Positions 8,330 to 33,960 of a stretch of DNA of 64,000 bases are shown here, piece by piece (within the stretch, counting starts at the first letter, position 1; each line of letters opens with the position of its first letter). The notes under the pieces were generated by a model. That model was not told where the DNA came from. It was given only the letters and a program-made list of their open reading frames with translations, and did not search any database. The DNA is from Phycisphaerae bacterium (lineage in GTDB: Bacteria; Planctomycetota; Phycisphaerae; WQYP01), in the NCBI GenBank assembly GCA_038248985.1, contig JBBRWV010000001.1:3091-67090 (forward strand). Direction: 5' to 3'. The position numbers and the translations under genes are program-made.

Positions 8330-9547
8330 TCATCTTTCAATTTTGGGAGACGGAAGGAGGATGCGGTCGATGGCAGCGGCGACGAGGCCCAGGGCGCGGC
8401 GGCGCGGCGCCAAGGTGATGCGCACCTCGCCGAAGCGGGCCCACATGGAGGCGTCGCGGATGGCAGTGGTGATGCGGTCGGTGATCGGTGGGGGAAGTTC
8501 CGCGAGGAAACCCGTGAGGACAACGTCGCGAATGCCGACAAGGTTGAGGGCCGTGGCGATGATGGCCCCGGCGGCATCGAGCGTGGGGGTGAGCCATTTT
8601 TCCAGAGGGTTGTGTTCGAGGTGGTGAACGAGCGTGGGCCATGATTTCTTGGCCGAGTGATGGGTCTTGGCGAAGGACGCGAGGAGGCCGCGGCGCGACA
8701 GCAGGGTTTCGAGGCAGCCAGTGTTGCCGCAGCCGCACGGCCGACGGTTGCCGGGGATGCGCGAGTGGCCGATCTCGCCGGAGAGGGGAAGCGGCGAGAC
8801 ATAAAGATGCGAATTGGCGGCCAGCGCCCCGCCGACGCCAGCACCGAAATCAACGAGGAGAAAATCTTTGATGACCGGTTGGGCCCAGAGTTGGCCGAGG
8901 GCGAGAGCGCGGATTTCCTGGACGAAGCAGAGGGGGGTGGCGCGGGCGGCGGGCAGCGCTTCGTGGACGAGCGTGCCAAGATTGACGTTGTGCAACCAGG
9001 GGATGTTGGGCGAGAGCAGCGTCAGCCCGGTGGATTCGTCGAGGGCGCCGGGGACGGAGATCGCGATGGCGGCAGTATCCGGGTTGTGAAGCGAGCGGAC
9101 GGCCGACGCGAGGTCGCGGATGAAAGCCTCGCGGGAAGCGGGGGTCTTGAACGTGATCGGCCAAGAGCGTTCCGAAGTGGGTTCATTGGTGGCGGGATCT
9201 TTCTGTGGTCCGGCGATGGGCAGGGCTGAGAGACGCGTGTTGTGAACCCCAATCTGGAGTGCGAGGATGGATTCGCGCGTGCGGTTAAGACGCAGCGGCC
9301 GGGAAGGGCGCCCGGTGCGGTCACGCGGCGCAAAGTGGTCGGGGGTGTCGACGGCTGGTGGAGGCGAATCTTCCTCCTCAAGCAGTCCGTCGGCGAGAAG
9401 TTGTTCGGCAATCTTGCCGACGGTGGGGGCGGAAAGGCCGATGGATTTGGCGGCATCGGCGCGGGATGCCGGTCCGGCGGCGCGGAGGTAGTCAAAGACC
9501 GCGAGGCGGTTGGAGGCGCGGGCGTCATGGGGGAGGATGGTGGGCAT
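8330..9547 (-). CDS. ROK-family transcriptional regulator (NagC/XylR-like) with N-terminal HTH
   Basis: N-terminal HTH (NRLAVFDYLRAAGPASRADAAKSIGLSAPTVGKIAEQL), ROK sugar-kinase-like fold and a CGCGNTGCLETL zinc motif. Confidence 0.85.
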   Translation of the reverse strand: MPTILPHDARASNRLAVFDYLRAAGPASRADAAKSIGLSAPTVGKIAEQLLADGLLEEEDSPPPAVDTPDHFAPRDRTGRPSRPLRLNRTRESILALQIGVHNTRLSALPIAGPQKDPATNEPTSERSWPITFKTPASREAFIRDLASAVRSLHNPDTAAIAISVPGALDESTGLTLLSPNIPWLHNVNLGTLVHEALPAARATPLCFVQEIRALALGQLWAQPVIKDFLLVDFGAGVGGALAANSHLYVSPLPLSGEIGHSRIPGNRRPCGCGNTGCLETLLSRRGLLASFAKTHHSAKKSWPTLVHHLEHNPLEKWLTPTLDAAGAIIATALNLVGIRDVVLTGFLAELPPPITDRITTAIRDASMWARFGEVRITLAPRRRALGLVAAAIDRILLPSPKIER

Positions 9548-10615: not shown

Positions 10616-10914
10616 ACGGGGATTATAGCGGAAGTTATGGCGGATGGGGAAAAGGCTGGCGCGGGGAAACTCATCGGGACAGTCGGGGGTGTGGACGGGG
10701 CCGAGGAAGTTTCATGGTCGTTCGGTCAGATCGGAATGGAATTTTGATATTATTTGCTGCAATCGGCGAACGCGGTCGCCGTTAATCATATAATGTGAAG
10801 TTGCTTTTGCGCACGCGAACAGATGGGGTACTAAGCCAGTGTGTTCGGCGCGCGGATCAGCAGCACATGTTCATAAAATTTGATGTGTCTAGAAAAGCGC
10901 AGAACAGGTGATTG

Positions 10915-13383
10915 ATGAAAACTGCCGTGGAGATCGTATCGACGAAGGCTGGACGCGCGAAGAGAGGGTCGATTGTCGGGCGATGTGCGATCGGGCTGGT
11001 GGTTGCGGCAATCGGGGGAAGGGCTTGGGCGGCACCGGAAGATAAATCCGCTGCCAGGGATGCATCTAAGGACGGCGCAGTCAGTGCGGGCTCAGTGAAC
11101 GGTGGCACGGCCAAGCCGGGCGACAAGAGCGCCACCACCAAGCCAGGTGGGCAGGCGACCGCCAGTTCCCTGATTGAAGACCGGGCGGCAAGGAAGCTGC
11201 TCGCCGCCGGTGACGCCCGCCTGGCGATGGATCAGTCGCGCGAGGCGCTGGAGCTCTTTCAACAGGTGGTGGAACGCTATCCGCGTTCCGTGGTCCGTTT
11301 TGAAGCGTTCATGCGGATGGGCAAGTATTACCTGGAAAAGGCGCACGATCCGACCAAGGCCCTGCCGTACTTTGAGCGGTCGGCGGTGGAACTGAACGAG
11401 GATACGGCGATTCGTGGCGAAGCCATGCTGATGGTGGGGCGGTCCTATTATGATCAGAGCAAATGGCAGCAGGCCTTTGCCAGTTTGCGGCTGGTGACGA
11501 TTCAGTATCCCGGCACCGAATTTTCCAACCAGGCTTATTTCTACATTGGCAACGCCCACTACAAGTTGGGGGCCTACAGTCGGGCCATCGAAGCGTTCGG
11601 CAAGGTTGGTACCGCCATCAGCGATACGGATCTGGGCAAGAAATATATGGAGATCGGCAAACGAATGTTCGTGCGCGTCTCTGATCTGGATCTGACGGCC
11701 CTGCAGGAAGGATCCGCAGTTACCGCGACGGTCACCAGTTCCTCGGGTGACTCCGAGACCGTCAAGCTGTCGCGCGTGGGCCCGCCGAACTCACCCAACT
11801 ATCTGGGCGAGCTGGACACCACGCTGGGGGAGGCGGTGAAGGAAGACGGGATGCTGCAGGTGCTGGGGTCGGACAAGGTGATGATCACGTATATGGATGC
11901 GCAGACGGCCTCGAAAGAACTGAATATCGCCCGCAAAACAGAACTGCAGGCCGTGCATAACGGCATCGCCGACTTCATGGATGGGGCGTTCCGCGATCCG
12001 CTCAAGACGGTGGTGGTGGGAAAAACCGCTTACCTGCGGGTGATCGATCTCGATCGCGATATTTCGCCCAAGCCTGACACTGTGCAGGTAAAGGTCGTGG
12101 CGAAACGGCTCGTGAAGAAGGCCTCCACCACCTTGCCCGTCGCAGCAGACGCTGCGGATGCGGCCAAGAAAGTCGAAGGGGCCGAAGTTCCCAAGAAGGA
12201 TGCGTCCGGTGCGGACATTCTTCAGGATGACGATGAACTTCCGGTGTACAAGGTGATAGATGAAGTCACGCTGACGCTGGGGGAGCGCCCGCGCGAAGGC
12301 GTCACGGACAGCGGGGCAATGGGTGCCGAAAAGCCGAAGTCGATGCACACCGGGGTCTTTGGCAACAGCGTGCCGATACTGCCGGGGACGGCGGTGGCGG
12401 GAGACGGGGTTCTTCAGGTGGAGTTTTTTGATCGCATTGAAGTGCAGTATATGGATGAGATCAATTCGTCGGGCAAGCCACGCGAAGTGATCGGGGTATG
12501 CACCGCCGTGGACGGGGCGCTGGCCGATGTGAAGGCTTCCGACCCGAATATCGACAATATTCAGCTGGAATTGCAGACCCGGCTGAAAAAGGCAGAAGCA
12601 CTGACGAACATCGGTCGGATCTACAAGCAATTGGGCTTGAAAGAGCAGGCGGTTCTGCATTTCCGCCAGGGGATCAGCGAGTGCGACGCCTTGGATGCGC
12701 GGGCCCGAAACCTGGGTGGCGAGGTGTTGGAGACCCTGTATGTGCGTTTGTGGAAACTTTACCTGGAATTGGACGAACTGGACCAGGCCGCCAAGATGTG
12801 TCTGCAACTGCAAAAGGATTTTCCCAACAGCCAGTTTGTAGATGAGGCGTTGCTGGGCCTGGGCGAGACGAGTCTGAAGAAGGGCGATGCCGAGAAGGCT
12901 ATTTCCATCTTCAAACGAGTGTTGGATTTGCCGGTCAGCGCGCGCAAGGCCGATGCTTTGTATCAAATCGGCCTCTGCCAAGAGCAGATGGCCCAGCCCA
13001 AGGCCGGCACCTCCGGCGATGCGGCCAAGCCCAACCAAAAGCTGATGGAGTCGGCCTTCCTGAGCTATCAGCAAGTATTCCAGAGATATCCGACCAGCGG
13101 CGTGGCGGGTGATGCCGTCGGAAAAATGGCCGACTATTATCTCGCCGCCAAAGACTACGATCGCGCCATATCCACCCTGCAACAAGCCCTCGATGAATAC
13201 CCTGACGCCCAGTTCACTGATCGCATTTTGTATGACTTTGGACGCAGCCTCTACCGCATGCAGCGGACGGACGAGGCCTTGGCCAAGTTCCGGCAGTTGC
13301 TCAGTGAATATCCCCAGAGCAAATGGGCCAGCAAGGTGAAACCCGTGATCGCGTCACTCGAAAAACGCGGCAAAGGTGATTAG
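10915..13383 (+). CDS. Secreted tetratricopeptide-repeat protein (823 aa) containing repeated beta-modules shared with the downstream giant protein
   Basis: Signal peptide (MMKTAVEIVSTKAGRAKRGSIVGRCAIGLVVAAIGGRAWAAPE). Multiple TPR-like helical repeats, e.g. ALELFQQVVERYP, AYFYIGNAHYKLGAYSRAIEAF and AISTLQQALDEYPD. Repeated modules such as DGMLQVLGSDKVMITYMDAQ and DGVLQVEFFDRIEVQYMDE. Confidence 0.75.
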   Translation: MKTAVEIVSTKAGRAKRGSIVGRCAIGLVVAAIGGRAWAAPEDKSAARDASKDGAVSAGSVNGGTAKPGDKSATTKPGGQATASSLIEDRAARKLLAAGDARLAMDQSREALELFQQVVERYPRSVVRFEAFMRMGKYYLEKAHDPTKALPYFERSAVELNEDTAIRGEAMLMVGRSYYDQSKWQQAFASLRLVTIQYPGTEFSNQAYFYIGNAHYKLGAYSRAIEAFGKVGTAISDTDLGKKYMEIGKRMFVRVSDLDLTALQEGSAVTATVTSSSGDSETVKLSRVGPPNSPNYLGELDTTLGEAVKEDGMLQVLGSDKVMITYMDAQTASKELNIARKTELQAVHNGIADFMDGAFRDPLKTVVVGKTAYLRVIDLDRDISPKPDTVQVKVVAKRLVKKASTTLPVAADAADAAKKVEGAEVPKKDASGADILQDDDELPVYKVIDEVTLTLGERPREGVTDSGAMGAEKPKSMHTGVFGNSVPILPGTAVAGDGVLQVEFFDRIEVQYMDEINSSGKPREVIGVCTAVDGALADVKASDPNIDNIQLELQTRLKKAEALTNIGRIYKQLGLKEQAVLHFRQGISECDALDARARNLGGEVLETLYVRLWKLYLELDELDQAAKMCLQLQKDFPNSQFVDEALLGLGETSLKKGDAEKAISIFKRVLDLPVSARKADALYQIGLCQEQMAQPKAGTSGDAAKPNQKLMESAFLSYQQVFQRYPTSGVAGDAVGKMADYYLAAKDYDRAISTLQQALDEYPDAQFTDRILYDFGRSLYRMQRTDEALAKFRQLLSEYPQSKWASKVKPVIASLEKRGKGD

Positions 13384-13474
13384 GTAAAGTCGCGGCCACC
13401 GGGTCGCGCACACACGGCATTCACATGTTTCCGATTTTCCGACTTACGATTTCCGAGTTGAAAGGCTAAACACG

Positions 13475-16400
13475 ATGGCCCGCAAAAATAAATTCATGAG
13501 CAAAATTACCGCATCGGCCCTCCTGGTCGCACTGATGACCGGCGGCGTCGTTTTGTATCCGGATTTGGTGACGGCCGCGCCGAAGGACGCCAAAACCGTG
13601 CAGACGTCCACCGCTGCCGTGGCCGCCATCAAGACGCTACTCACCCAGATTTCTCAGGCCACTGGCGAAGAATTACGGTCTCCGCTGCGCCTGAAATTGG
13701 TGGACGCATACATGGAGCACGGACGCCCGTTGGAAGCGGCGGCCGAGTTGCAGGTATGGTTGAAGAACAATTCGAAAGCCCCGGAACGCGAGAGGGCTCT
13801 GCTGACCTTGATCAACGCCCAGCGCCAAAGCAATGACTGGGACGGTGCTGCGAGTGTGAGCCGCACATTTATACGCGAATATCCCAAATCCGCATCGCTG
13901 GAGAGCACGTTTTCCGGGTTGGTCGAAATTGCGCGTTATGGGCAGGCCTCCCCCGTAAGCGAAGCCTCCGCCCTGGGCGACTGGGTCGCGGCCAATCCGA
14001 ACGATGCCGCGAACGCCGGACGCATGTTGCGCCAAGCACGTTTACAGGAACAGTCCGGCGCCGTCGCTGAAGCGATTGCCACCCTGCGAAAATTTACCGC
14101 CAAATATCCCAAGGATCCGGCGGCGGGCGATGCCAGTTGGCGCGCGATTTACCTAACCCACGATCGCCTCCGACGCTCCGCCGAAGCCTTTGAGGCCGGT
14201 AAGATTTTCCTGAACGCCAATCCGAAACGCCCCAACAGCAGCAAGGAATGGCAGTGGCTGGGCGACCTGGCCCGTTCCATGGACAATCACCAGGAAGCGA
14301 TTCAGGCCTTCAAGAAGGCTCTGGCGGCTGATCCGACCAATCGAGAGTTGATCAATCAGTTTCAAGATTCTCTATGGCGCACCGGAAATATCCCGGAAAT
14401 GTCCGCGCTCTCCGATTTCATGACCAAGAACCTTCCTTGGGATTCGCAGAATTGGAACCTGCGGCTTGCGCTGGCCAACAAGAGCCTGGACGCCGACGGA
14501 AAAAAGAACGGCCCAGCCGTTCAGGCGGAAATGCTCTCTCTGATCGATAAGGGAGTAAGGCCCGGAGATGCCGCAGGGATCTACGAGCGGGCCTCCCTGG
14601 CTTTGGGAATAGACCCCAAAGTGATCACGGAAACGCTCAAAGGAAAATATGCCCAGGCCAAAAGGGAAGGACGCCGCGAACTGGCGGAACGGATTACGGA
14701 ACTCCTGCGTCGCACGCAGGGGGCGACCATCACCCAGGCCTTTATTGAGACGGAGCTGAAAGAGAATCCGCTCAACAATGGCAACTTGGTGCGCACCTAC
14801 GTTGAGATGTCGGTGAATGATCAGATTTGGGAGACCAACGAAAAGAAACGCACGAAATATGAGCTCGATGGGACAATTAAGAAGATTGCCGAGATTATCA
14901 AACCCTACGCCTATTTGCCTGAATTGCGCAAAGGGATGGAACAGGCCGGGGACGCCCTCCAACGCACCAAGCAGAAAGAATTGACCGTGGTACTGCGGCA
15001 GCAAATCGAAATGCTGTCCCAGACCGAGCTGGCCATACAAGTGGATATCGCCTATCGCGAAGCCCGTCGCGATTGGAAAAAAGCGACCGATGCGCTGACT
15101 ATCCTTTTGAAAGAATCCAAAACCAATCCGGCAGTATTTACCACTCTGGGCCACGATACGATGTGGACCCTGCTGGAACGCACCCCGCCCGAGGGCGTTG
15201 ACAAGGTCCTCGCCTGGTGGGGTGCCCAGGCCGACAGTCGCCCGGATGACATCTGGTTCAACAACATGGTCGGCGACGCATTCCGCCGCTACAAAAAATT
15301 CCCCGAAGCCGTGGTCTTCTATGCCCGCGGCAGCACCGGCACCGTCACCATCGAAAACAGCCAGAACTACAGCCAGGCACTGGGGTCGTTGATTGATGTT
15401 TACAGTTACGAGCTCAAGAAAAATGATGAAGCCGAAAAACTAATCGTCAATTTTGACCGCAACGCAACGTCGTATTCACCCCAGGCACGGCAGGAACGTT
15501 ACCGCCAGTTCGGCGATTTCTACGGCCGCTTGAACGCCCGCGACAAACAAATCAACTACTACCGCAAGGCCGCCGAACTCGGCATGTCCAACACCGGCTA
15601 CGATTCCGTCAAGAACCTCATGATTGTGCTGCCGCCTGCCGAGAGTGTCGCCTACGGTCAGAAGCTGCTGGCCGATGCGGCCTACGACAAATGGTCTCCC
15701 GAAATCGGCCTCATGGTGGCGCACCGCCAGGCCACGGGCTTGAAAGACATGGCCGCCGCCGTCGATACGCTGGCCTTGGCCAATGAAAAGCGCCTGACCA
15801 CCGGCACCTTCGATATGGACAACTGGGGAACATTCCGCGAACTGGTGTCGATGGGCCTTGATCTGGCCGACCCCAAACGCGTGACCGATCCCAAACGCAA
15901 GGAAATGCTCACCGGCATCAAGCCGCTGGAACCCGCCAAGCTGGACCAGCTGCTCGCCCTGGGAATGCAGTGGCTCGGTTCACAGCAGATGCACGAAGTC
16001 GCGCGGGAAATCATCCGCCGGGCCGGCACCTCCGGGGAACGCGGTGCCCAACTGGATATTTTCTCGCAGATTCTGGCACGTACCAAGGCCAATGACGGGT
16101 GGCACTGGGATCGCAACATGGAAATCATCAATGACGAAGTCGCCCGCGGAAATGAGGGGACGGCGTCCACCATGCTCCGATTGCTGCTGAAACAATCCAG
16201 TGGCTACAACGAAGCCGCCCGCTCCGCCGCTCGTTCGCTGCTCCTCAACACCTATAAAAAATTCGGTGAGGATCTGCTGGCGGTCGATGACAAGTCTCCG
16301 ATCGCGCCGCTGCTGAAAGGCGCCAGCTACCTGCGGCTCGGCGAGGAAAAAACCGCCTGGGAGATGTACCAGAAAAACGCGGAACTTTTCGCCCAGAAAA

Positions 16401-19400
16401 TTGACGAAATTCCCAGCGAATACGTGCTTTATATCGGCAATGAACTGGCCACCGGTTCCGATGCCGACCGCGATGTCGCCGAGCAACTGTTGCGCACGTG
16501 GCTGGCCCGCGCCGACAAAATCCAGGGCTTGGAGGGCTCGGTGAAGGCGGCGGTTCAGCTCAAGCTCGCTGACGTCTTCTACTATGGACGCCGCTTTGAC
16601 GTTGCCCGCGCCGAGTACCAATCAGTCATGGACAAGTATCCCGAAACTGCCCAGGCCATCGAAGCGCAGTTCCGCATCGGCGAGTCCTTCATGTACCAGA
16701 AGAACTACGTGGAGGCGACGAAAGTCTTCGAAAAACTGCGGAAAAACAAGGATACCGACATCGCCATCCGCGCGACCTTCATGCAGGGCGTCCTGCAGTA
16801 TGAAACCAACGCCCGCGAAGAAGCCCGGGAAACGTTCAAGGCTGTGCTCGACCTCTCCCCCTCCGAAGAAATCGCCTCCAAAACCCTCTTCCAACTGGCC
16901 TTGATCTACGGCGACGACAACCGCTTCAAAGAAATGTTGGACATGCTCTCGGCCATCGGCAACTACGGCCGCGAAGCCAAACGCTGGCACTCCCCCGGCA
17001 AACCCCTGACCGTCCTCATTCACGATCCGGACATGGCCATCGTTCAGGACGCCCGCTCCGTCCCCGTGCTCGTGACCACGTCCAATGGCGATCGCGAGTT
17101 GATCACGCTCGTTTCCGGCGCCGCCGGCAAGGGCTTCTTTCAGGCCGATCTGCCGACGACCCTGGGTGCCAGCAAACCCAATGACGGAACCCTGCAATTG
17201 CTGGGTTCAGACATCATCACCTATGACTATCCCGACGATTTCAAGGCGAAATTCAAATATGTCCCGCCCCCGCAGGGAAATATCCGCATTGCTGCGGACG
17301 CGACGTTCGCGGTCTCCAACGCCCACATCCAGGAAGAGAGCAAAAGAAGCGCCCTGCAACGCGCCGACAAAGACGGCAAAATCCAACGCCTGTCCGATGA
17401 AGCCAAGGAGTTTCGTGCCAATAACGAAATCAAGCCGGGCAATCCTCTCTACGTCCGCATCGTCGATCCCGACCGCTCCACCAACGTCGGCGTCAATCGC
17501 GTCGAAGTCGTCGCCCGGGCCGGCACCGGCGATACCGTCCGCATGTGGGTAAATGAAACCTCCGCCAACACGGGCATCTTTGAAGGAATGATCAAGACGG
17601 CCGAACGCCCCGCCGAGGCCATCGCTTCCGATAGCTCGCTGGGCAAACTTCCCGGTCTTGCCACCGATAAGGACACTGCCAGTGCGTGGGAGTCGCAACA
17701 CGATGGTCAACCCGGCAAGTGGCTTGCCGCTGACCTCAAAGATGTTTTCTCCATCAAGCAGTTCGCGTTCTCCATGCCTGACGACAAGCAACTCGCTGCG
17801 GCGCGCTTTACCATTGAGTCGTCCAACAACGGTACGTTGTGGACGCCTGTGCTGACGCAGGACAAAGGCAAGATTGCCCACGGACTCACGCTGAATTACG
17901 GTCCGATGCGTCACAAGCACTACGCTTGGAGCAAGGAAAAGGCGAAGTTCGCTGATGCGAAGGCCCCCGAAGATCTCACTTCCTACATCAACACCGTGGC
18001 CACGGCCAAGGTCGCTTCGCTCGACGCCAGCGCCGTCAACACCATGGCCCTGCCCGCCGTCGGCACCGATACCGAAGCGGATGTGCATTCGTTGGTTGGT
18101 TATTTCTTCGTCAACAAAACCGGCGTTCAAACTTTCCACGCCATCACCGGCGATAACGGTTCCGCCGCCCTCGTGATCGACGGCCGCGTAATCGCCGCCG
18201 ACAAGAAAGGCTTCTCGGAATGGGGCGTTGGCGTCGAGTTGACCCGCGGCTGGCACCACTTCGCCGGATTCATCACGTTGCGCGGCGCCTATACCGATCG
18301 CAGCAAGCCCGCCGGTTTCCGTTGCACCCCCATCGACACCTGGGGCGTCGATCAGGCGATGCAATACGCAACAGCCCAGCGCGGCGGTGAGAATGAACCC
18401 ATGCCCGTGCCTTCACTCATTTCCGTGCCCGCCGAGGGAAAACTCAAAGTCGAGGGCGCAACCCTCACGGCTGATTTTTCCGCTGCCCCCATTCCCGGCC
18501 GTCTCTTTCGCGTCCGATTCGAAAAATACAGCGGCGATTTCGTCAGCGTTTCCAACCTGCAAGTCACCGGTGCCGACGGCAAACTCCTTCTGCCCGCCGA
18601 AGGCAGCGTGGTATCCCTCGCCGATGATGACGTACTGCAAGTATCTCCTGGCGAAGACATTTCCGTGAGCTATGCCGATCAGGTCAACACCCGCACCCCC
18701 GGCGAAGCCCGCGCTCTCTCTGGCAAGTTGAAGGCCACCTACTACAACGCCAAAATCGCCGCGATTGCCTACGAGGTAAAATCCACCACTGAAGGCGTGG
18801 AACGTCGCATCAAGGAACTTTACCGGATCGATCCCGGTGATCGCATCATCGCCCACATCACCGATTACGATGAAGACACCTCGCCGGAAATCAACAAGCT
18901 GCAATTCAAGGTACGTTCCGAAAGCGGCGCCGAAGTCGCTCTGGAAGCCACCGAAACCGATGCCACCTCCGGCATCTTCACCAAGGAAATTGAAACTGGC
19001 GAGGGCCTCGGAAAACTCTCCGTGAAACCCGGCGAACGCATCTACCTTATCTATACCGATCGGCAGAACACACAGCCCGGTTCGCGCACCGATCGCGTCG
19101 CTGAACTCTCCGTCGTCAAACCCACCGACGGCCTGGTGAACATCCTGCCCACGCGGGCCGAATTGCCCCCGCCGCCCAAAAAAGATGCCGCCCCCGTATT
19201 CGCCACTGGCGATGGCGTGACCATCGGCGAACCCCGCATAATCTATCTGAAGCCTGAACCCGGGAAGCCCGCGCGTGTGGTGCTCGCCGCCCCGCTCACT
19301 GTCGAAGTCATCGATCAGGATGCCGCCAAGGATTCCCACTCGACGGTGGTGGTGGAAATTACCACGTCTTCCGGCGCCAAATTGAAACTCCCGCTGGAAC

Positions 19401-20965
19401 TCTCAGACCAAACCAGCCAAGGCTCCTGGGGCCACGGTTCCGCCATGGCGGACGGTCGTTTCGTCGGCCAGGCCTTGCTCGTCCTCGGCAAGCCCGATGA
19501 AAACGGCAAGTCCAACACCTCCGTCTCCGTGGAACGTGCACGGCGCCTCCTGGGCGCATGGCGTTACAGCGATGGCGACAATGCCAATTCTGATGCCGGT
19601 TCCGTCAAGGCTCCCGTGCTGCCGATTCTCGGGTCCGACACGATCACTGCGGTCTACAACGATAAGCGTTCAACCAGCGGCGATAACCAGGAACGCAAGT
19701 CCGAAGGACGCATGGTCACCGATGCCACGCTCACGAATCTCGACCGTGGATTCCTCGAACCCGTGGCCACCATTCACCTCGGTGAAAAACTTTACCTCCG
19801 CGTCGAGGATGCCGATCGCGACACCACGGCCGAGCAGGACGAAGTCACCGTGACCCTTACCAGCAACGCCGGCGAGAAACTGGACATCACGTTGAAAGAA
19901 ACCCTGGGTCACTCCGGTACATTCACCGCCGAAGTGCCCACCCATCACGCCACCAAGCCCGACCCTGCCAATGGCACGCTGGATACCAATTTCGGCGACT
20001 CGCTTTCACTGGCCTACGTGGATGACTCGCACACCCAGTCGATGTCACCCATCGAACGCAAACTCAGCATCCAGGTCGCCCTCGGAGCCGATGCAGCGAT
20101 GGCCGCGTTCACCAAGCAGTTCGGCAGCGAGGAAATCGCCGTCGAAACCCAGTTCAAGCTCGCCGAATGCTATTTCGAGATTTTCAAGAGTCAGAATCAA
20201 ATCAAGGCCACCGCCGAGGCCCGCGTCGCCCTCGAATCCGGCCGCGCCATCCTCGCCACCGTCCGTGACAACTACCGCGGCTCCGGGTACGAAGCCCGCG
20301 TGCTCTACCTGCTCGGCGGCTTCCACCAGGAACTCAAGGAACTCGACCAGGCCATCGAATGTTACAACGGCATCATCCGCTCGCATTCCAACAACGCCTT
20401 CGCGCCTGATGCCCAGTACAAACTCGCCCAGTGCTTCGAAGACAAAAATGAGATGGATCGTGCCAGCGAAGAGTATGTGCGGCTGGCCTACACCTACCCC
20501 GATAATCCCCTCATCGCCAAGTGCATGGTCCGCCTGAACGACTACTTCTTCAAGATTAACAAGTTCCAGGTCGCCGCCAACATCTGCGGCCAATTTCTGG
20601 AGCAGTACGGCGAGCATGAACTGGCCCCCAAGATCGCCTTCCGCCAGGGTCAATGCTACTTCAAGGCTGCTGAAACCCCCGTCCGCGAAGGTGAGCCGAA
20701 AACCGATCCGAAGGCTAATTACTTCCTCGCCGCCAAGGCCTTCGATGTACTGGTGGAACGCTACACCGATAGCGACCTGCGTCCCGATGCCATGTTCTGG
20801 GCCGGTCGGGCGTATCATGAGGCCGGTGAGGAAGCCCTGGCGTATCGTCGTTACCGTCGCGTCACCTGGGACTTTCCAGATTCCGATGCCGCACGTTATG
20901 CTCGCGGTCAGTTGACGCTGCCGGCCATGCTCAACGCGGCCAAGGATGATTCCGGCAGCAAGTAA
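13475..20965 (+). CDS. Giant secreted protein (2496 aa): N- and C-terminal TPR arrays, central F5/8 type C (discoidin)-like and PA14-like carbohydrate-binding domains, plus repeated beta-modules
   Basis: Signal peptide (MARKNKFMSKITASALLVALMTGGVVLYPDLVTAAP). Discoidin-like block DKDTASAWESQHDGQPGKWLAADLKDVFSIKQFAFSMP...FTIESSNNGTLW. PA14-like block VGYFFVNKTGVQTFHAITGDNGSAALVIDGRVI...GWHHFAGFITLRGAY. TPR-like C-terminus, e.g. AQYKLAQCFEDKNEMDRASEEY. A recurring module ...G.F.......DG.L...GSD.I...Y.D occurs at least 5 times. Confidence 0.8.
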   Translation: MARKNKFMSKITASALLVALMTGGVVLYPDLVTAAPKDAKTVQTSTAAVAAIKTLLTQISQATGEELRSPLRLKLVDAYMEHGRPLEAAAELQVWLKNNSKAPERERALLTLINAQRQSNDWDGAASVSRTFIREYPKSASLESTFSGLVEIARYGQASPVSEASALGDWVAANPNDAANAGRMLRQARLQEQSGAVAEAIATLRKFTAKYPKDPAAGDASWRAIYLTHDRLRRSAEAFEAGKIFLNANPKRPNSSKEWQWLGDLARSMDNHQEAIQAFKKALAADPTNRELINQFQDSLWRTGNIPEMSALSDFMTKNLPWDSQNWNLRLALANKSLDADGKKNGPAVQAEMLSLIDKGVRPGDAAGIYERASLALGIDPKVITETLKGKYAQAKREGRRELAERITELLRRTQGATITQAFIETELKENPLNNGNLVRTYVEMSVNDQIWETNEKKRTKYELDGTIKKIAEIIKPYAYLPELRKGMEQAGDALQRTKQKELTVVLRQQIEMLSQTELAIQVDIAYREARRDWKKATDALTILLKESKTNPAVFTTLGHDTMWTLLERTPPEGVDKVLAWWGAQADSRPDDIWFNNMVGDAFRRYKKFPEAVVFYARGSTGTVTIENSQNYSQALGSLIDVYSYELKKNDEAEKLIVNFDRNATSYSPQARQERYRQFGDFYGRLNARDKQINYYRKAAELGMSNTGYDSVKNLMIVLPPAESVAYGQKLLADAAYDKWSPEIGLMVAHRQATGLKDMAAAVDTLALANEKRLTTGTFDMDNWGTFRELVSMGLDLADPKRVTDPKRKEMLTGIKPLEPAKLDQLLALGMQWLGSQQMHEVAREIIRRAGTSGERGAQLDIFSQILARTKANDGWHWDRNMEIINDEVARGNEGTASTMLRLLLKQSSGYNEAARSAARSLLLNTYKKFGEDLLAVDDKSPIAPLLKGASYLRLGEEKTAWEMYQKNAELFAQKIDEIPSEYVLYIGNELATGSDADRDVAEQLLRTWLARADKIQGLEGSVKAAVQLKLADVFYYGRRFDVARAEYQSVMDKYPETAQAIEAQFRIGESFMYQKNYVEATKVFEKLRKNKDTDIAIRATFMQGVLQYETNAREEARETFKAVLDLSPSEEIASKTLFQLALIYGDDNRFKEMLDMLSAIGNYGREAKRWHSPGKPLTVLIHDPDMAIVQDARSVPVLVTTSNGDRELITLVSGAAGKGFFQADLPTTLGASKPNDGTLQLLGSDIITYDYPDDFKAKFKYVPPPQGNIRIAADATFAVSNAHIQEESKRSALQRADKDGKIQRLSDEAKEFRANNEIKPGNPLYVRIVDPDRSTNVGVNRVEVVARAGTGDTVRMWVNETSANTGIFEGMIKTAERPAEAIASDSSLGKLPGLATDKDTASAWESQHDGQPGKWLAADLKDVFSIKQFAFSMPDDKQLAAARFTIESSNNGTLWTPVLTQDKGKIAHGLTLNYGPMRHKHYAWSKEKAKFADAKAPEDLTSYINTVATAKVASLDASAVNTMALPAVGTDTEADVHSLVGYFFVNKTGVQTFHAITGDNGSAALVIDGRVIAADKKGFSEWGVGVELTRGWHHFAGFITLRGAYTDRSKPAGFRCTPIDTWGVDQAMQYATAQRGGENEPMPVPSLISVPAEGKLKVEGATLTADFSAAPIPGRLFRVRFEKYSGDFVSVSNLQVTGADGKLLLPAEGSVVSLADDDVLQVSPGEDISVSYADQVNTRTPGEARALSGKLKATYYNAKIAAIAYEVKSTTEGVERRIKELYRIDPGDRIIAHITDYDEDTSPEINKLQFKVRSESGAEVALEATETDATSGIFTKEIETGEGLGKLSVKPGERIYLIYTDRQNTQPGSRTDRVAELSVVKPTDGLVNILPTRAELPPPPKKDAAPVFATGDGVTIGEPRIIYLKPEPGKPARVVLAAPLTVEVIDQDAAKDSHSTVVVEITTSSGAKLKLPLELSDQTSQGSWGHGSAMADGRFVGQALLVLGKPDENGKSNTSVSVERARRLLGAWRYSDGDNANSDAGSVKAPVLPILGSDTITAVYNDKRSTSGDNQERKSEGRMVTDATLTNLDRGFLEPVATIHLGEKLYLRVEDADRDTTAEQDEVTVTLTSNAGEKLDITLKETLGHSGTFTAEVPTHHATKPDPANGTLDTNFGDSLSLAYVDDSHTQSMSPIERKLSIQVALGADAAMAAFTKQFGSEEIAVETQFKLAECYFEIFKSQNQIKATAEARVALESGRAILATVRDNYRGSGYEARVLYLLGGFHQELKELDQAIECYNGIIRSHSNNAFAPDAQYKLAQCFEDKNEMDRASEEYVRLAYTYPDNPLIAKCMVRLNDYFFKINKFQVAANICGQFLEQYGEHELAPKIAFRQGQCYFKAAETPVREGEPKTDPKANYFLAAKAFDVLVERYTDSDLRPDAMFWAGRAYHEAGEEALAYRRYRRVTWDFPDSDAARYARGQLTLPAMLNAAKDDSGSK

Positions 20966-21011
20966 TAGTTTGGATTGAATATCGTTGTGAGTTTATTCGA
21001 GGTTTCCGACC

Positions 21012-21839
21012 ATGAGTTTTCTAATCACACTGGCGCAAGCGGCATCGACTGCGGCCACCCAAGCCGCCTCCAACCCCGCCACCGTCACCCAGACCACCGA
21101 AAACGCCAAGGCTTGGTATGAGTACGGCCTTATCGGCTGGTACTACAACGGTGGCTTCTTCATGATTCCACTCTTCCTTTGCCAGGTCATCGGATTGGCG
21201 ATCATCATTGAACGCATCCTCGCCTATCGCGCGATCTCCATCGATACCTCCGGCTTCCGCGCCAAAATCGCCGCGTTGCTCTCCGGCGGAAAGGTCGATG
21301 ACGCACTGGTGCTCTGCGACACCACCCCCGGCCCGGTCTCCGCGACCATCGCCGTCGGCCTCCGCCGTTTCAAACTCCTTCGCGTCCTCGGTAAACCCGC
21401 CGATCAAATCGAGTCTGAAGTGTCCAAGGCCGTCGATGATTTCGGCGTTCACATCATCGCGATTCTCGAGAAGCATCTCCCGCTCCTCGCGACTGTCACC
21501 GCCCTGGCCCCGCTCTTCGGCTTCATCGGCACCGTGTACGGCATGGTCGAAGCCTTCGATGCCATCACCCAGGCCGCTGGCTCCGGCAACATCATTCTGG
21601 TAACCGCGTCCGGCATCAAGGTGGCGTTGCTCACCACCGTCCTGGGCCTCTGCATCGCCATCCCCGCCCAGTTCTTCTACAACGCCTTCTCCAACCGTGT
21701 CAACGGCTTCGTCCTCGAAGTCGAAGAATCCGCGACGGAGCTGGTCCAGAACCTCGCACTCATGTCGGCTCTGGGCGATTCGGCGATCACGTCGAGCCCC
21801 GCCGACGCCAAGGCAGTTCTAGCGACCACCACGGCCTGA
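21012..21839 (+). CDS. exbB: MotA/TolQ/ExbB proton-channel family protein
   Basis: Three-TM topology with conserved C-terminal region LAPLFGFIGTVYGMVEAF...ALLTTVLGLCIAIPAQFFYN, typical of ExbB/TolQ. Confidence 0.9.
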   Translation: MSFLITLAQAASTAATQAASNPATVTQTTENAKAWYEYGLIGWYYNGGFFMIPLFLCQVIGLAIIIERILAYRAISIDTSGFRAKIAALLSGGKVDDALVLCDTTPGPVSATIAVGLRRFKLLRVLGKPADQIESEVSKAVDDFGVHIIAILEKHLPLLATVTALAPLFGFIGTVYGMVEAFDAITQAAGSGNIILVTASGIKVALLTTVLGLCIAIPAQFFYNAFSNRVNGFVLEVEESATELVQNLALMSALGDSAITSSPADAKAVLATTTA

Positions 21840-21879
21840 AGTGACCTCACACCGCCTGTAAAGAAAGTTTCTCCCCGCT

Positions 21880-22338
21880 ATGTCCATCCCGCGCAAGAAA
21901 AAATCTGCCGTTGAAATCCCGCTCACGTCCACCGCGGACGTGGCGTTTCTGCTGCTCGTGTTTTTCCTGGTGGCGGCCTCCAACGCGGTCGAAAAAGGTG
22001 TGCCGCTCGACCTGCCCAATACCAGCAAAACCCAGGAGAAAAAGAAGTCGGAAAACCTCGAGGTCGGCATCACTGTCGATGCGATCACCCTCGGCGGTGA
22101 GCCTCTGGCCAATGAAAATTCCCTCCAGGAAGTTCTGCGGGCCAAACTCGCCGGCGTTACCGAGCCCTCCCTCCGCGTCGTCGTCGTAACTGCCGCCGCC
22201 GCCGTGGATTACCAACGCTGGACCCGCTTCATCGCCGAAGTGGAAATGGCCGGCGGCATCCCCGCCCCACAGATCGAAGAAGAGGAAACGCGTCCCGCCT
22301 CTGGTAGCGGCCCGGTCGACGGGGGGGAGGCCAATTGA
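21880..22338 (+). CDS. exbD: ExbD/TolR biopolymer transport protein
   Basis: N-terminus EIPLTSTADVAFLLLVFFLV, the ExbD TM with conserved Asp, plus a periplasmic domain. The stop overlaps the start of the next exbD (ATGA at 22335-22338). Confidence 0.85.
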   Translation: MSIPRKKKSAVEIPLTSTADVAFLLLVFFLVAASNAVEKGVPLDLPNTSKTQEKKKSENLEVGITVDAITLGGEPLANENSLQEVLRAKLAGVTEPSLRVVVVTAAAAVDYQRWTRFIAEVEMAGGIPAPQIEEEETRPASGSGPVDGGEAN

Positions 22339-22751
22339 AGATCCAGCGCGCGCAAAGACTTAACGCCACGATCCCCCTCTGCAGCACTGCGGATATCGCC
22401 TTCCTGCTACTGATATTCTTCATCGTGCTCTCCAAGAACGCCAATGAATCCTCGCTCGAATGGCTCCCCGCCGAGTCTCCCCAACTCCTCGTCGACGCGG
22501 ACAACTCCGTCGTCACCGTCATCATCGATAAAAAATATGACGTCTTTGTTAACGGCCACGAGGTCGCGCCCTCCATGGTGAAATCCGTCGTACAGTCTTA
22601 TCTCGGCGACCGCGCGCCGGGCTTACGCAAAGTCCTTTTGAAAATTGATAAAGACGTGCCCGAGCGTGTCTTCGGCAAAGTATTGTTGGATATCGGCGAA
22701 GCCGGCGGTGACATCTTCCGCGCGCTCGATACCGTTTCTGAAAAGAAGTAA
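22335..22751 (+). CDS. exbD: ExbD/TolR biopolymer transport protein (second paralog)
   Basis: N-terminus ATIPLCSTADIAFLLLIFFIVL followed by a periplasmic domain. Translationally coupled to the upstream exbD. Confidence 0.85.
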   Translation: MKIQRAQRLNATIPLCSTADIAFLLLIFFIVLSKNANESSLEWLPAESPQLLVDADNSVVTVIIDKKYDVFVNGHEVAPSMVKSVVQSYLGDRAPGLRKVLLKIDKDVPERVFGKVLLDIGEAGGDIFRALDTVSEKK

Positions 22752-22790: not shown

Positions 22791-23207
22791 ATGGCGACGA
22801 TCAGCAATCTGAAAACCGGCGTGAAGGGAACCGCCAAAGAGATCCAGGAATTCGTGGCCTCTCTCAAAGGCCGCACACCTGCTGAAGCCATGGGCGTCGT
22901 CGCCCAAAGTCACCTCCTGCAGGCCATTGTCATCTCCGTGCTCGTTCAGGGTGGCATCATGGGGCTATCCTGCGGCATCGCTTATTACAGAGGTGACCCT
23001 CCCGCGCCGGTGGCCCCCGTTATCGTGGCCCCCGCGCCGGCCAACCCCCGGCCCGCCCCCGTACCGGCCGCCACCAACACCGCAGCCACTTCCGCCCCCT
23101 CCGAAGACGCCATCAAGAAAGTCATGAACACCGACATCATCAAACCGGAAGACCAGACCAAAAAAGGCCCCCGCGATGTGGATGACATTCTCAACAACTT
23201 TCGCTGA
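22791..23207 (+). CDS. Membrane-anchored proline-rich protein: TonB/TolA-like N-terminal anchor plus rod, lacking a recognisable C-terminal TonB domain
   Basis: Single TM (LLQAIVISVLVQGGIMGLSCGIAYY) followed by the Pro/Ala-rich segment PPAPVAPVIVAPAPANPRPAPVPAAT and a short charged C-terminus. Position in the operon is that of tonB/tolA. Confidence 0.5.
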   Translation: MATISNLKTGVKGTAKEIQEFVASLKGRTPAEAMGVVAQSHLLQAIVISVLVQGGIMGLSCGIAYYRGDPPAPVAPVIVAPAPANPRPAPVPAATNTAATSAPSEDAIKKVMNTDIIKPEDQTKKGPRDVDDILNNFR

Positions 23208-23604: not shown

Positions 23605-24510
23605 ATGCCCGCTGGCGGCGGCACCACCGCCGCCATGGCCAAACAGATGATGAAGGTCAAAAAGGTCAAAATCGTCAAAAAAACCCGGCAGATCGTCAAC
23701 GTCAATTCCCCTATCATTTTTCAGCGGCCGGATATCGACAAAATGATGGAAGAAAAAGTCACCAAAGTTCTCGAGCAGGGCACCGCCAATCTCTACAAGC
23801 AAGGCATGATGGGTTCCGGCAGTGGCGACTCCGCCGGCTTCTCCAGCGGTCGTGGCGTCGGCGAGGTCGGCCTCATCCGCCTCAAGTATTCCGGCGGCGG
23901 AGATTGGGATTCCAACTTCGGCAAAGGTGCCGACAACAATATGCTCTTGGAATACCACCTGCTTTCCGAACAAAAAACCGCCAAGGAATCCAAAGCCATT
24001 CCCATCATTGGCTTCGACGGCCTCAATTCGTATAAGAAATATTACGCACCGCCCATGGTTTACCTTACCGGCTCAAAAGGCCTCGACCTCAGCGACAGAG
24101 AAATCACAACCATCCGCAAATACATCGAGGAAAACCACGGCATGATCTTCGCCGACGCCGCCTCGCCCGCCTGGGGCCGTTCCTTCCGCGAAAACATAAT
24201 GCCCCGGATTCTCCCCGACGTGAAAGCCGTCGCCATCCCCATCGATGACGAAATCTACACCGGGCCCTTCGCGCTCACCTCCATGCCCTACGCCTCGCCC
24301 CATGACCAACCCATGGTCATGCGCGGCTGGAAAATCAACGGCCGCTGGGTCGCCATTTATCACCCCGGCGATATCGGCGATTGCTGGAAAGACGGTCACG
24401 CCGGCGTCTCCGGCGAAACCGCCACCGCCGCCTATGCTCTGGGGGCCAATATCATCTTTTACGCCCATCGCACGTATAATGAATGGCGTACTGAAAATAA
24501 GGTTAAATAA
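23605..24510 (+). CDS. DUF4159-like domain protein. The ORF is open upstream to 23254 and encodes two predicted TM helices, so the start is probably upstream and non-ATG.
   Basis: Blocks IRLKYSGGGDWDSN, PPMVYLTGSKGLDLSDREITTIRKYIEENHGMIFADAA, INGRWVAIYHPGDIGDCWKD and ALGANIIFYAHR fit my recollection of DUF4159 conserved blocks. The frame upstream of ATG 23605 has no stop back to TGA 23251 and encodes ISKPYILAVIGPVVNLV and LTWSALIQGLVLLWFTVGIGL (TM-like). There is no ATG, GTG or TTG in that stretch; only ATT at 23254 and CTG at 23257. Confidence 0.6.
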   Translation: MPAGGGTTAAMAKQMMKVKKVKIVKKTRQIVNVNSPIIFQRPDIDKMMEEKVTKVLEQGTANLYKQGMMGSGSGDSAGFSSGRGVGEVGLIRLKYSGGGDWDSNFGKGADNNMLLEYHLLSEQKTAKESKAIPIIGFDGLNSYKKYYAPPMVYLTGSKGLDLSDREITTIRKYIEENHGMIFADAASPAWGRSFRENIMPRILPDVKAVAIPIDDEIYTGPFALTSMPYASPHDQPMVMRGWKINGRWVAIYHPGDIGDCWKDGHAGVSGETATAAYALGANIIFYAHRTYNEWRTENKVK

Positions 24511-24512
24511 GG

Positions 24513-26159
24513 ATGTCGATGCGTACTTTGCACCGGACAAGACGTTTTTCCCCCGCCCTGCCCGCACTCGCCTTGGCAGCACTCTGCGCCCTCTTCCCGG
24601 CGGCTCAGTCCCCTGCCCGCGCCGATGAACCCGGCCTGCTCTCCAAGGAACGCTGGACCAACCTCACCGAAATCCAGTTCGCCGAACTCAAGTCCGCCGA
24701 AGACACATTCCGTAAAAAAGCCTACACCGCCGCACGTAACGCCTATGAAAAATTCATGACCGTCAACAGCAAGTCCGATGTCGCCACCTATTGCCAGTTG
24801 ATGATGGGCGAATGCCTCCGCCTCAACGGCAAACCCAACGAAGCCATCTCCGACTTTCAGTTCGTCCGCGATCTCGCCGAAGATTCCGATGATGCCAAGT
24901 GGGCCTACCTCCGCATCGCCCAATCCCACCGCCAGGCCGGCAACGCCGAAAAAGCCGCCCTCATCTATAAGGAAATCTTCAAGGACAACGGCACCCACGT
25001 CACCGCCTTCGTTGCCGTCCTCGAACTCGTCGACGTGCTCGAGAGTCAAAACAAACTTCGTGACCGCGCTCCCTATCTCGACGACTTCGCTGAACGCTTT
25101 CTCAAAAAACGCTATGACGGCTGGGCGTATCAACGCGCCATCCACACCCTCGCCTATGAAAAATTGCTCGCCGGTTCGCCCGACGTCGCCTTCACCCTCC
25201 TCAAAACCGTCGAAAAATCCGCCGACGCCGAACGCACCGTTCTCAACATCGGCTCCAACGCCGTCCGCGATCTCAGCACCAAGGAAACCGTCAACCGTCG
25301 CGATGCCCTCGCCGAAGCCCTCACCAACATGGTCATGGCCTGGCTCCGCGAAAATAAGGACCGCACCAACCACCAGGATCTCACCCGCGGCGTCGTCTTC
25401 CTCTACATCAACATCGGCAAGGGCGAAGAGGGTGCCAAGCAGGCCCTCGCCGCGCGCAAAATCTACAGCGATGCCCGCTGGACTCTCGAACTCATGGTCG
25501 ACCTCTACCGCCACGATAAAAAAATGGACAAGGCCGTCGCCACCGCCTCCGAAGCCCGCCGCATCCACAAAGATGCCGACTGGACCCTCGACATGTACGC
25601 CGAACAACTCAAAGACAGCGGCGACCTCGGCCAGGCCGTCTCCGCCTGGGATCTCATGAAGGACCGCAGGCACGCCCTCTTCCGCAGTTCTGATGCCCTC
25701 CGCCACGCCGGAAAAATTACCGAGGCCATCGAACGGCGCCGCAAGATTTCCGAGCTTGACCCTACGGCTGGCTCCGAAGTCGCCATGTGGATCGGTGACG
25801 TGCTGGAGCAATCAGGCAAATACGATGAAGCCATCAAGGAATACCTGCTCGCCCAGAACGAACCGCGGAATCTCTACCAGATTGCCGAATGCAAATCCAA
25901 ACAGAAAAAATACAAGGAAGCCATCGAGCAATACTCCACCATCGCCGCCGCCTTTGAAAAAGAAACTCCCGAGGCCATGTATCGCATGGCCCTCGAGTAC
26001 GAAAAACTCTCCGACACCACCACCGCCATCAATTTCCTCCGCCGCATCTGCCGCACCTTCCCCAAGTCGCAGGCCGCCTCCAGCGCCCACGTCCGCCTGC
26101 AATCCAAATACAAAATCGATGAAACCCTCGGCGGTTCCGAAGGCGACAAGAAAGACTGA
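24513..26159 (+). CDS. Secreted TPR-like repeat protein (548 aa), in CpoB/YbgF-like position at the end of the exbBD cluster
   Basis: Signal peptide (MSMRTLHRTRRFSPALPALALAALCALFPAAQSPARA). TPR-like helical repeats throughout, e.g. AYLRIAQSHRQAGNAEKAALIYKEIF and EAIKEYLLAQNEPRNLYQIAECKSKQKKYKEAIEQY. Start is 3 bp after the DUF4159 stop. Confidence 0.75.
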   Translation: MSMRTLHRTRRFSPALPALALAALCALFPAAQSPARADEPGLLSKERWTNLTEIQFAELKSAEDTFRKKAYTAARNAYEKFMTVNSKSDVATYCQLMMGECLRLNGKPNEAISDFQFVRDLAEDSDDAKWAYLRIAQSHRQAGNAEKAALIYKEIFKDNGTHVTAFVAVLELVDVLESQNKLRDRAPYLDDFAERFLKKRYDGWAYQRAIHTLAYEKLLAGSPDVAFTLLKTVEKSADAERTVLNIGSNAVRDLSTKETVNRRDALAEALTNMVMAWLRENKDRTNHQDLTRGVVFLYINIGKGEEGAKQALAARKIYSDARWTLELMVDLYRHDKKMDKAVATASEARRIHKDADWTLDMYAEQLKDSGDLGQAVSAWDLMKDRRHALFRSSDALRHAGKITEAIERRRKISELDPTAGSEVAMWIGDVLEQSGKYDEAIKEYLLAQNEPRNLYQIAECKSKQKKYKEAIEQYSTIAAAFEKETPEAMYRMALEYEKLSDTTTAINFLRRICRTFPKSQAASSAHVRLQSKYKIDETLGGSEGDKKD

Positions 26160-28532: not shown

Positions 28533-28558
28533 CCCCTAACCCCTGACTCTGGCCCCTT

Positions 28559-29863: not shown

Positions 29864-29881
29864 AACCCACTCAAACTCTCT

Positions 29882-30592: not shown

Positions 30593-30650
30593 TAAAAACA
30601 AATCCCACGTTGTCCTTCCTTCCCCCTGCGTCAAACGTGAAGCTTGAAAC

Positions 30651-33854: not shown

Positions 33855-33917
33855 AATTCAGCAATGCGTCGCCTGATCTCACCGGCAAATGGAGAAAATT
33901 CATTGACGTCCGGGGTT

Positions 33918-33946
33918 TGTTCGGTACACTGAACAGCATACGAACA
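33918..33946. promoter_or_regulatory. Putative LexA (SOS) operator upstream of imuA: GAAC-N7-GAAC direct repeat overlapping a TGTTC-N8-GAACA palindrome
   Basis: tgTTCggtacactGAACAgcatacGAACaa lies 15-43 bp upstream of ATG 33961. RBS AAGGAA at 33950-33955. GTTC/GAAC-N7 repeats are the LexA box form used by alphaproteobacterial imuA-imuB-dnaE2 cassettes. Confidence 0.45.
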
Positions 33947-33960
33947 AACAAGGAATCCCC

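Follow-up and report, generated by a model that had tools for sequence, protein, structure and literature searches.

In a 64,000-nucleotide stretch of the genome of a Phycisphaerae bacterium (assembly GCA_038248985.1, contig JBBRWV010000001.1; hereafter the window, whose numbering is used for all coordinates), two neighbouring plus-strand genes encode proteins of 823 and 2496 amino acids (aa), here named p1 and p2, in which arrays of tetratricopeptide repeats (TPR) enclose two and five copies, respectively, of one repeat. Judged from profile comparison and a structure model, this repeat is an immunoglobulin (Ig)-like domain of the type found in the archaeal S-layer protein NmSLP, a seven-stranded beta-sandwich of ~115 residues. 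Although the domain family lacks a Pfam model, its fold is a known one, with a solved structure for a homologue, and neither this fold nor the kind of repeat is out of the ordinary; p1 and p2 place a known kind of domain in an uncommon architectural context. The repeat had been noticed in an earlier reading of the window (the original prediction) as a novel block recurring in both proteins.

The repeat copies and the paralogy of p1 and p2

The features of the two genes are as follows, with the positions and bit scores of the matches to the hidden Markov model (HMM) of the family and, where given, the independent E value (iE).

10912..13383, plus strand: p1 gene, 823 aa (open reading frame (ORF) and translation)
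11638..11994, plus strand: p1 Ig1, aa 243-361, complete and compact (HMM 3-124, 90.2 bits)
12001..12549, plus strand: p1 Ig2, aa 364-546, core 364-398 and 477-546 (HMM 3-38, 20.9 bits, and 52-122, 33.5 bits)
13475..20965, plus strand: p2 gene, 2496 aa (ORF and translation)
16976..17332, plus strand: p2 Ig1, aa 1168-1286 (HMM 2-124, 86.9 bits)
17423..17644, plus strand: p2 Ig2, N-terminal part, strands A to C', aa 1317-1390 (HMM 4-78, 50.7 bits)
17645..18619, plus strand: insertion of ~325 aa in the C'-E loop of p2 Ig2, F5/8 type C (discoidin)
~17852-18445: inner insertion of ~200 residues in the F5/8 type C domain, p2 aa ~1460-1657
18620..18775, plus strand: p2 Ig2, C-terminal part, strands E, F and G, aa 1716-~1767 (HMM 72-102, 13.3 bits, iE 2.5e-6)
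18821..19156, plus strand: p2 Ig3, aa 1783-1894 (HMM 4-122, 87.0 bits)
19289..19735, plus strand: p2 Ig4, aa 1939-2087, as 1939-1976 and 2041-2087 (HMM 10-50, 12.8 bits, and 69-117, 14.3 bits)
19760..20119, plus strand: p2 Ig5, aa 2096-2215, the copy used for the structure model

The family HMM finds two copies in p1 and five in p2, in agreement with the at least two and at least five blocks reported in the original prediction, and the six strings quoted there are all present, in p1 at aa 312-331 (11845-11904) and 498-516 (12403-12459) and in p2 at aa 1237-1255 (17183-17239), 1853-1865 (19031-19069), 2046-2064 (19610-19666) and 2166-2186 (19970-20032). The string DGMLQVLGSDKVMITYMDAQ lies in p1 Ig1, and p2 Ig4 contains APVLPILGSDTITAVYNDK. 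The block, however, is the C-terminal half of the repeat, covering strands C' to F. The full unit of ~115 aa starts with 'G..lyvrV.D.D.d....d.v.V.v.s..Gd.e.l.L.ET' and ends with one more strand after 'Y.D', and the median start-to-start spacing in the tandem arrays of relatives is 122 aa; the module length of ~40-60 aa given at first was therefore too short by about half. p1 Ig2 has ~78 extra aa, rich in Ala, Lys and Asp, in its B-C and C-C' loops, and in p2 Ig4 the C-C' and C'-E loops are enlarged. A seed HMM made from the four compact copies and run on p1 and p2 without prior positions recovered every other copy, three of which came as two collinear model halves split by extra sequence; p2 Ig2 is outside the seed alignment, yet its N-terminal part was found at an iE of 2.6e-11. 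Moreover, p1 Ig2 was also picked up by an HMM built from the p2 copies only. Six copies had been counted in p2 at first, and the extra one (aa 1715-1740) is the C-terminal part of the split Ig2. The identity between copies is low (17–35%; p2 Ig1 and p1 Ig1 share 35.6%). An HMM from three p2 copies alone scored 82.8 bits on p1, while 1000 residue-shuffled versions of p1 reached 6.7 bits at most; a single p1 copy scored 51.5 bits on p2, with 4.3 bits as the highest value in 300 shuffles; and BLASTP between the central regions gave E values of 2e-12 to 2e-10 in a comparison of the two proteins. With these controls the repeats are clearly significant, a point on which the original prediction had made its own claim depend.

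From the N- to the C-terminus, p1 consists of a signal-peptide-like segment, an N-terminal TPR region, the two Ig-like domains and a C-terminal TPR region, and p2 of a signal-peptide-like segment, a helical/TPR region of ~1150 aa, the five Ig-like domains and a C-terminal TPR region. Read by eye from the translations, both N-termini are hydrophobic and end in A-x-A/AP (AWA/AP in p1), and by the same reading signal-peptide-like N-termini occur in the related protein P0003 and in a 2690-aa p2 orthologue on the related locus L001. Pfam and NCBIfam place TPR matches at aa ~58-231 and 561-810 of p1 (TPR_6/TPR_2/YfiO, TIGR02795) and at aa 177-358, 1029-1161 and 2243-2470 of p2, the units being of the TPR_6/YbgF/BamD type; in the central part of either protein the only significant Pfam match is F5/8 type C at p2 1389-1465. 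These TPR positions, together with the AlphaFold2 model described below, bear out the proposal that a beta-rich domain lies between the TPR arrays. Two blocks of the proteins align in colinear order, p1 116-329 with p2 1048-1254 (TPR and first Ig domain, E=1e-17) and p1 314-803 with p2 2048-2470 (C-terminal TPR, preceded by Ig5 and the last part of Ig4, E=6e-14). By these alignments p1 and p2 are paralogues, as had been suggested, colinear across their TPR and Ig parts, and because of the two colinear blocks p1 is taken to be a shortened paralogue of p2, without the N-terminal helical region of ~1000 aa and three of the internal Ig domains. On the minus strand, long ORFs of 308-464 aa (11791-13185, 17207-18364 and 18413-19339) run antisense across the two genes; most likely they are stop-poor frames of GC-rich coding DNA and not genes.

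The second Ig domain of p2 is nested on three levels. Its C'-E loop holds an F5/8 type C domain, which covers aa 1389-1465 and, with its C-terminal strands, ~1658-1700, and PF00754 matches it with 31.3 bits in the whole protein and with 36.1 bits in the excised insert (cut-off 28.2; profile positions 10-83 of 127). This domain is interrupted in turn by ~200 residues, because alignment with the orthologue P0001, which has no inner insertion and keeps its two F5/8 type C halves 20 aa apart, places the remainder ~200 aa downstream. The 2690-aa orthologue keeps the inner insertion. The insertion of ~325 aa had no match among PDB sequences. Sequence searches of Pfam and the PDB gave no match for these ~200 residues, and a PA14-like module, which was considered for them, had no support from either search. 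The split of Ig2 is also found in P0001, P0002 and the 2690-aa orthologue, and the pattern of split copies is kept in orthologues of only 23–35% identity. In P0002, a metagenomic p2 orthologue, Ig1 runs into mid-Ig2 at aa 467-582 (HMM 1-78 and then 25-60), which points to a loss of sequence between two repeats, by in-frame deletion or by collapse in the assembly.

Fold, solved relative and extent of the family

The AlphaFold2 model of p2 2095-2216, for which the 50-sequence family alignment (A4) was used and the segment was extended past 'Y.D' to the last strand, has a pLDDT of 91.6, a pTM of 0.80 and seven main strands (11-17, 29-36, 41-48, 55-64, 75-77, 82-89 and 99-107), so that the modelling of one repeat, proposed earlier as a check, yielded a beta-sandwich. 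A first model, from five window sequences and 95 aa, had a pLDDT of 67.6 and a best Foldseek E value of 0.027. With the good model, Foldseek returned 8c8k at E=1.6e-6 with a TM of 0.75; the next distinct protein was 4kh9, the DUF4785 central domain (Legionella lpg0956), at E=6e-3 with a TM of 0.45. The former is NmSLP (Nmar_1547; PDB 8c8k/8c8m), the S-layer protein of Nitrosopumilus maritimus, which has ten Ig-like domains, the ninth of them running up to residue 1616 and one nested in another, and whose lattice disappears when treated with EGTA (PMC11153153, von Kügelgen et al., Nature 2024). The 50-sequence profile matched NmSLP (8c8k_A) at E=1.1e-24 (89.6 bits), the best stretch being residues 1518-1609 in Ig domain 9 (iE 4.7e-13), while several of the other domains contain weaker ones; a profile of the window sequences only gave E=0.0016. 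The motifs D-x-D-x-N, ETxxxTGxFxG and GDxVxxxYxD align residue by residue with NmSLP 1517-1595, and the signature common to the family and NmSLP comprises D-x-D-x-[DN] after strand A, E-T-G..G-x-F and G-D...Y-x-D. The repeat has the features expected of an NmSLP-type domain, namely a sandwich of 110-120 residues, the profile match, a superposition better than that on generic Ig-like folds and the motifs; its identity to the solved NmSLP domain is only ~19%. The setting of the domain is different in the two systems: NmSLP is an archaeal surface-lattice protein of ten Ig-like domains without TPR, whereas p1 and p2 are bacterial, carry their copies between TPR arrays and are linked to an ExbB/ExbD motor. 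The TPR at both ends and the synteny with exbB and exbD argue for a role of p1 and p2 other than that of a surface-lattice building block.

An exhaustive HMMER search with a 12-sequence profile, over a space of 1.84 billion cluster representatives (clusters at 50% identity), found 4090 representatives at E<=1e-3, 1557 at E<=1e-10 and 487 at E<=1e-30, which carries out on a large protein collection the HMM search that had been proposed. A word-indexed protein search returned nothing with a 5-sequence profile, and with the 50-sequence profile its sole find was a fragment of 157 aa, because the family is too divergent for shared 5-mers. Among the best 150 representatives, 68 have a p2-like C-terminal TPR region (median 2496 aa, 4-6 detected copies) and the other 82 are without it (median 11 copies, range 5-43). 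The family consensus reads pG..l.vrV.D.D.[DN]....D.v.V.V....GD.E.l.L.ETG..sG.F.G.i.T.......DG.L.V..GD.i...Y.D, followed by ~10 residues and a final strand; in the family alignment G9 is invariant, and D18, F56, Y87 and D89 are conserved in at least 90%. Many members are giant tandem-repeat proteins with IPTL-CTERM, DUF11, PKD and Big_5 modules. In their sources the relatives are called 'large repetitive protein', 'hypothetical protein' or 'Ig-like domain-containing protein', and the last name is due to the presence of the unrelated Big_5 domain.

No Pfam-A family was above threshold on the repeat in p1 and p2, in four relatives (5-18 detected copies) or in 50 members scanned singly, and none of these 50 members matched the Big or Cadherin families, to which the block might have belonged. 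In addition, the copies in the sampled giant tandem-repeat proteins have no Pfam or NCBIfam domain annotation. Below threshold, DUF4785_2nd reached 22.6 bits (cut-off 30) and SpaA 13.5 bits on p1 and p2, the faint E values being 1e-4 to 7e-3 for DUF4785_2nd, 0.08 for SpaA and 0.005 for MG2; the match to DUF4785_2nd appeared in only 4 of the 50 members (best E=0.007), and all matches to DUF4785 and to macroglobulin MG domains are below the family thresholds. These faint matches are what could be adduced for the view that the similarity is a matter of chance or composition, or that the block is a known Pfam domain such as Big or Cadherin-like. This view is already refuted by the shuffles given above, by the thousands of homologues and by the 50 members free of Big and Cadherin matches. 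As to the novelty claimed in the original prediction, the absence of a Pfam model stands, but the fold is known and has a solved homologue in NmSLP.

A named relative is found in NCBIfam, where NF052345 (Kustd1514, the Kuenenia S-layer glycoprotein) matches p2 with 50.5 bits in three stretches, far from its whole-protein cut-off of 1400; p2 aa 2035-2191 correspond to its positions 1002-1158 (E=5.6e-14). It has no match in p1, and multi-copy members of the family match its region ~965-1305. By these matches p2 shares a domain type with the Kustd1514 family and is not a member of it. For Kustd1514, which comes from anammox Planctomycetes (PMC5088730), no TPR or ExbBD linkage is described, unlike for p1 and p2.

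The gene cluster in the window and in related genomes

Downstream of p2 the window continues with the following genes.

21012..21839, plus strand: MotA/TolQ/ExbB-type proton channel gene, 47 bp downstream of p2 (PF01618, 2.5e-24)
21880-22338, plus strand: ExbD/TolR-type gene 1 (PF02472, 2.3e-19)
22335-22751, plus strand: ExbD/TolR-type gene 2 (PF02472, 7.1e-13)
22791..23207, plus strand: gene for a 138-aa protein, directly after the ExbD pair, no Pfam match
23605-24510, plus strand: gene for a DUF4159 protein (PF13709, 1.9e-24)
24513-26159, plus strand: gene for a third TPR protein of 548 aa (TPR548; TPR matches)

The gene order in the window is thus p1, p2, ExbB/TolQ-like, two ExbD/TolR-like, the 138-aa protein, DUF4159 and TPR548. 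p1 and p2 stand at the head of this cluster, which is conserved in genomes of the Planctomycetota/Verrucomicrobiota type and includes the DUF4159 and TPR548 genes. The 138-aa protein has one transmembrane helix (TMH) that contains His (…AQSHLLQAIVISVLVQGG…), followed by the Pro/Ala-rich stretch PPAPVAPVIVAPAPANPRPAPVPA, which suggests a TonB/TolA-like topology; it has no recognisable C-terminal domain and no vWA match. The SHLS motif of TonB/TolA is not matched with exact spacing, and only the His in the TMH and the Pro-rich tail are common to both. The metagenomic contig L054 has the same gene order as the window, with a 129-aa TMH/acidic-Pro-rich protein at the place of the 138-aa protein, a DUF4159 protein of 36% identity and the DUF4159-TPR548 part at 16193-18063. 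In the loci L001-L020, on the other hand, the TPR548 homologue is directly upstream of the p1 homologue, unlike in the window and L054, where it follows DUF4159; the usual order there, from six-frame analysis, is a TPR protein of ~600 aa, p1-like, p2-like, ExbB, ExbD and ExbD. In the related loci the p1-like proteins have 2-3 detected HMM stretches, split domains being counted twice, and the p2-like proteins, of ~2570-2730 aa, have 4-5. The detected Ig copy number among p2 orthologues is 4-6. An ExbB gene follows the giant gene in ~16 related loci, and synteny with ExbB/ExbD was seen in L001-L020, L023 and L054.

Full-length p1 homologues of ~28–31% identity were found in a scan of species-representative genomes in ~20 metagenome-assembled genomes, labelled as Planctomycetota (Pirellulales, Planctomycetaceae and Phycisphaerae) and Luteolibacter; the word index gave only three close relatives, all at most 35% identical. 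A survey of Tol/Ton-type force transducers has reported a similar cluster for the Planctomycetes-Verrucomicrobia-Chlamydiae (PVC) group, where an 'uncharacterized TPR gene' stands upstream of a tolQ-like and two different tolR-like genes, and a transducer of unknown function has a TMH (SHLS motif), a Pro-rich linker and a vWA C-terminal domain (PMC12204202, Mol Biol Evol 2025). The cluster in the window resembles it in the TPR gene, the tolQ-like gene, the two tolR-like genes and the small TMH/Pro-rich protein, and differs from it in that the transducer slot is taken by the 138-aa protein without vWA, followed by a separate DUF4159 protein. The passages of PMC12204202 considered here (section 8 among them) do not describe Ig-like repeats, a paralogous pair or a discoidin insertion.

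The wider neighbourhood in the window is ordinary chromosomal, with genes for ComEC, glycosyltransferases, DegT, MtnA, ROK, a sodium:solute symporter and ABC/FtsX. Over the window (1-64000) the GC skew has an extreme sawtooth form, which tracks position regardless of the direction of the genes. Calculated for 1-kb windows, it starts at +0.50 at the left end and drops gradually to -0.57 at 32-33 kb; by 40 kb it has leapt back to +0.35, after which it sinks to -0.28. Its extremes lie at 1-2000 and 28000-34000 and its steps at ~34000 and ~39500-40000. Among plus-strand genes the skew at third codon positions goes from +0.81 in the ComEC-like gene to -0.87 in the ABC/FtsX genes, and the minus-strand ROK gene (8330-9547) obeys the positional trend. 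The amino-acid composition shifts with the skew, the left end being rich in Gly and Val and the region at 28-34 kb in Leu, Pro and Ser. In the syntenic loci of ~20 related genomes |skew| is <= 0.17, and nothing comparable was seen.

Proposed role of p1 and p2

Considering the domain content and the gene order, we hold with moderate confidence that the best explanation combines the domain identity given above with a function of p1 and p2 in a periplasmic Tol/Ton-like machine, in which they most likely act as a spacer or scaffold. Both proteins would be exported to the periplasm by the Sec pathway, where the Ig arrays would form semi-rigid spacers; an Ig domain is roughly 4-5 nm long, and the five domains of p2 could span ~20 nm. 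The TPR arrays at both ends may dock partner proteins, by analogy with the binding of TolA by CpoB, the discoidin insertion may bind glycan, e.g. peptidoglycan or an envelope polysaccharide, and the whole assembly would connect the proton-driven ExbB/ExbD motor with an envelope layer at some distance from it. Furthermore, the conserved acidic residues, which sit in the A-B, C-C' and E-F loops, may bind Ca2+ and stiffen the array, which is plausible because, in an Ig topology of seven strands, these loops would share one end of the sandwich and adjoin the domain that follows. In their TPR units of the TPR_6/YbgF/BamD type and in their genetic linkage to TolQ/TolR-type genes, p1 and p2 are like CpoB/YbgF and BamD/YfiO, and TIGR02795 (YbgF-type TPR) scores p1 and p2 at 118.4 and 152.7 bits, respectively (cut-off 90.1), summed over 5-6 stretches. 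They are unlike CpoB/YbgF, the TolA-binding protein of Tol-Pal, in that the latter has ~260 aa, an N-terminal coiled coil and no Ig domains, while p1 and p2 have 823 and 2496 aa and Ig arrays. The myxobacterial Glt gliding TPR proteins, PorW and BatC were also considered as counterparts and gave only weak, generic TPR matches far below the cut-offs.

Several points weigh against the spacer or scaffold role. The full-length CpoB model PRK10803 gives 69.1 and 51.8 bits against a cut-off of 383, and therefore the similarity to CpoB is, by these scores, one of TPR repeats and not orthology. Ca2+ binding is plausibly read from the motif positions and the Ig topology only, and the passages of PMC11153153 considered here give no ion sites for these motifs. 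The relatives of the domain are mostly in surface or S-layer proteins, which makes surface exposure of p1 and p2 possible. Moreover, in the Luteolibacter loci L016-L018, in contrast to the Planctomycetota loci, no ExbB/ExbD (E<1e-5) was found in the ~2 kb downstream of the giant gene (~19900-22100), where the motor genes may be further away or too divergent.

A different view is that p1 and p2 are on the cell surface, where the Ig arrays would form an S-layer-like lattice or an adhesin and ExbB/ExbD would drive their secretion or anchoring, or else a movement of the gliding type. The nearest relatives with a structure or a name, in N. maritimus and Kuenenia, are indeed S-layer proteins, many family members are giant tandem-repeat proteins with the surface-type modules IPTL-CTERM, DUF11, PKD and Big_5, the discoidin insertion is a typical extracellular module for binding glycan or lipid, and the authors of PMC12204202 speculate on a gliding role of the neighbouring transducer. 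However, p1 and p2 have neither a C-terminal sorting or anchor signal nor an outer-membrane-secretion domain, both their ends consist of TPR arrays of the CpoB/BamD type, a hallmark of periplasmic adaptors, their copies number only two and five, whereas members of the tandem-repeat class have 5-43 (median 11), and no secretion-system genes were seen in the cluster, so that we regard a surface location as unlikely. It could also be that the Ig copies are passive linkers between two independent TPR modules and that the link to ExbB/ExbD is operon hitch-hiking. The low identity between the copies (17–35%), the tolerance of the loops for large insertions and the variation of the detected copy number between orthologues (4-6) would all agree with this, but the order of the copies and the position of the discoidin insertion are kept in orthologues of 23–35% identity, the signature residues G9, D18, F56, Y87 and D89 are conserved at 90% or more throughout the family, and the gene order with exbB and exbD holds across two phyla. 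A passive linker therefore seems to us quite improbable.

If the periplasmic spacer or scaffold is taken a step further, p1 and p2, TPR548, the DUF4159 protein, the TonB/TolA-like protein and ExbB/ExbD might form an undescribed envelope machine of Planctomycetota/Verrucomicrobiota type, in which S-layer-type Ig arrays, brought into use in the periplasm, would serve as a strut or lattice, stiffened by Ca2+ and anchored to glycan, that carries proton-motive force across the unusually wide periplasm of these bacteria. We put this forward as a speculative extension with a rather low probability; if true, such a machine could serve in envelope remodelling, macromolecule uptake or surface movement.

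The current understanding is not overturned by these results. They show a very large Ig-like family (at least 4090 clusters at 50% identity) that is still without a Pfam model, and with the structure-anchored alignment, thousands of proteins now called 'large repetitive' or 'hypothetical' could be annotated. For the cluster of the PVC group they give content to the 'uncharacterized TPR gene', as it is called in PMC12204202: its counterpart here has TPR arrays parted by an S-layer-type Ig rod with a nested discoidin domain, and is accompanied by a shorter paralogue. From this arise testable ideas on the reach, the anchoring and the Ca2+ dependence of the Ig/TPR proteins. A domain type of archaeal and planctomycetal S-layers is reused here in a different architectural context.

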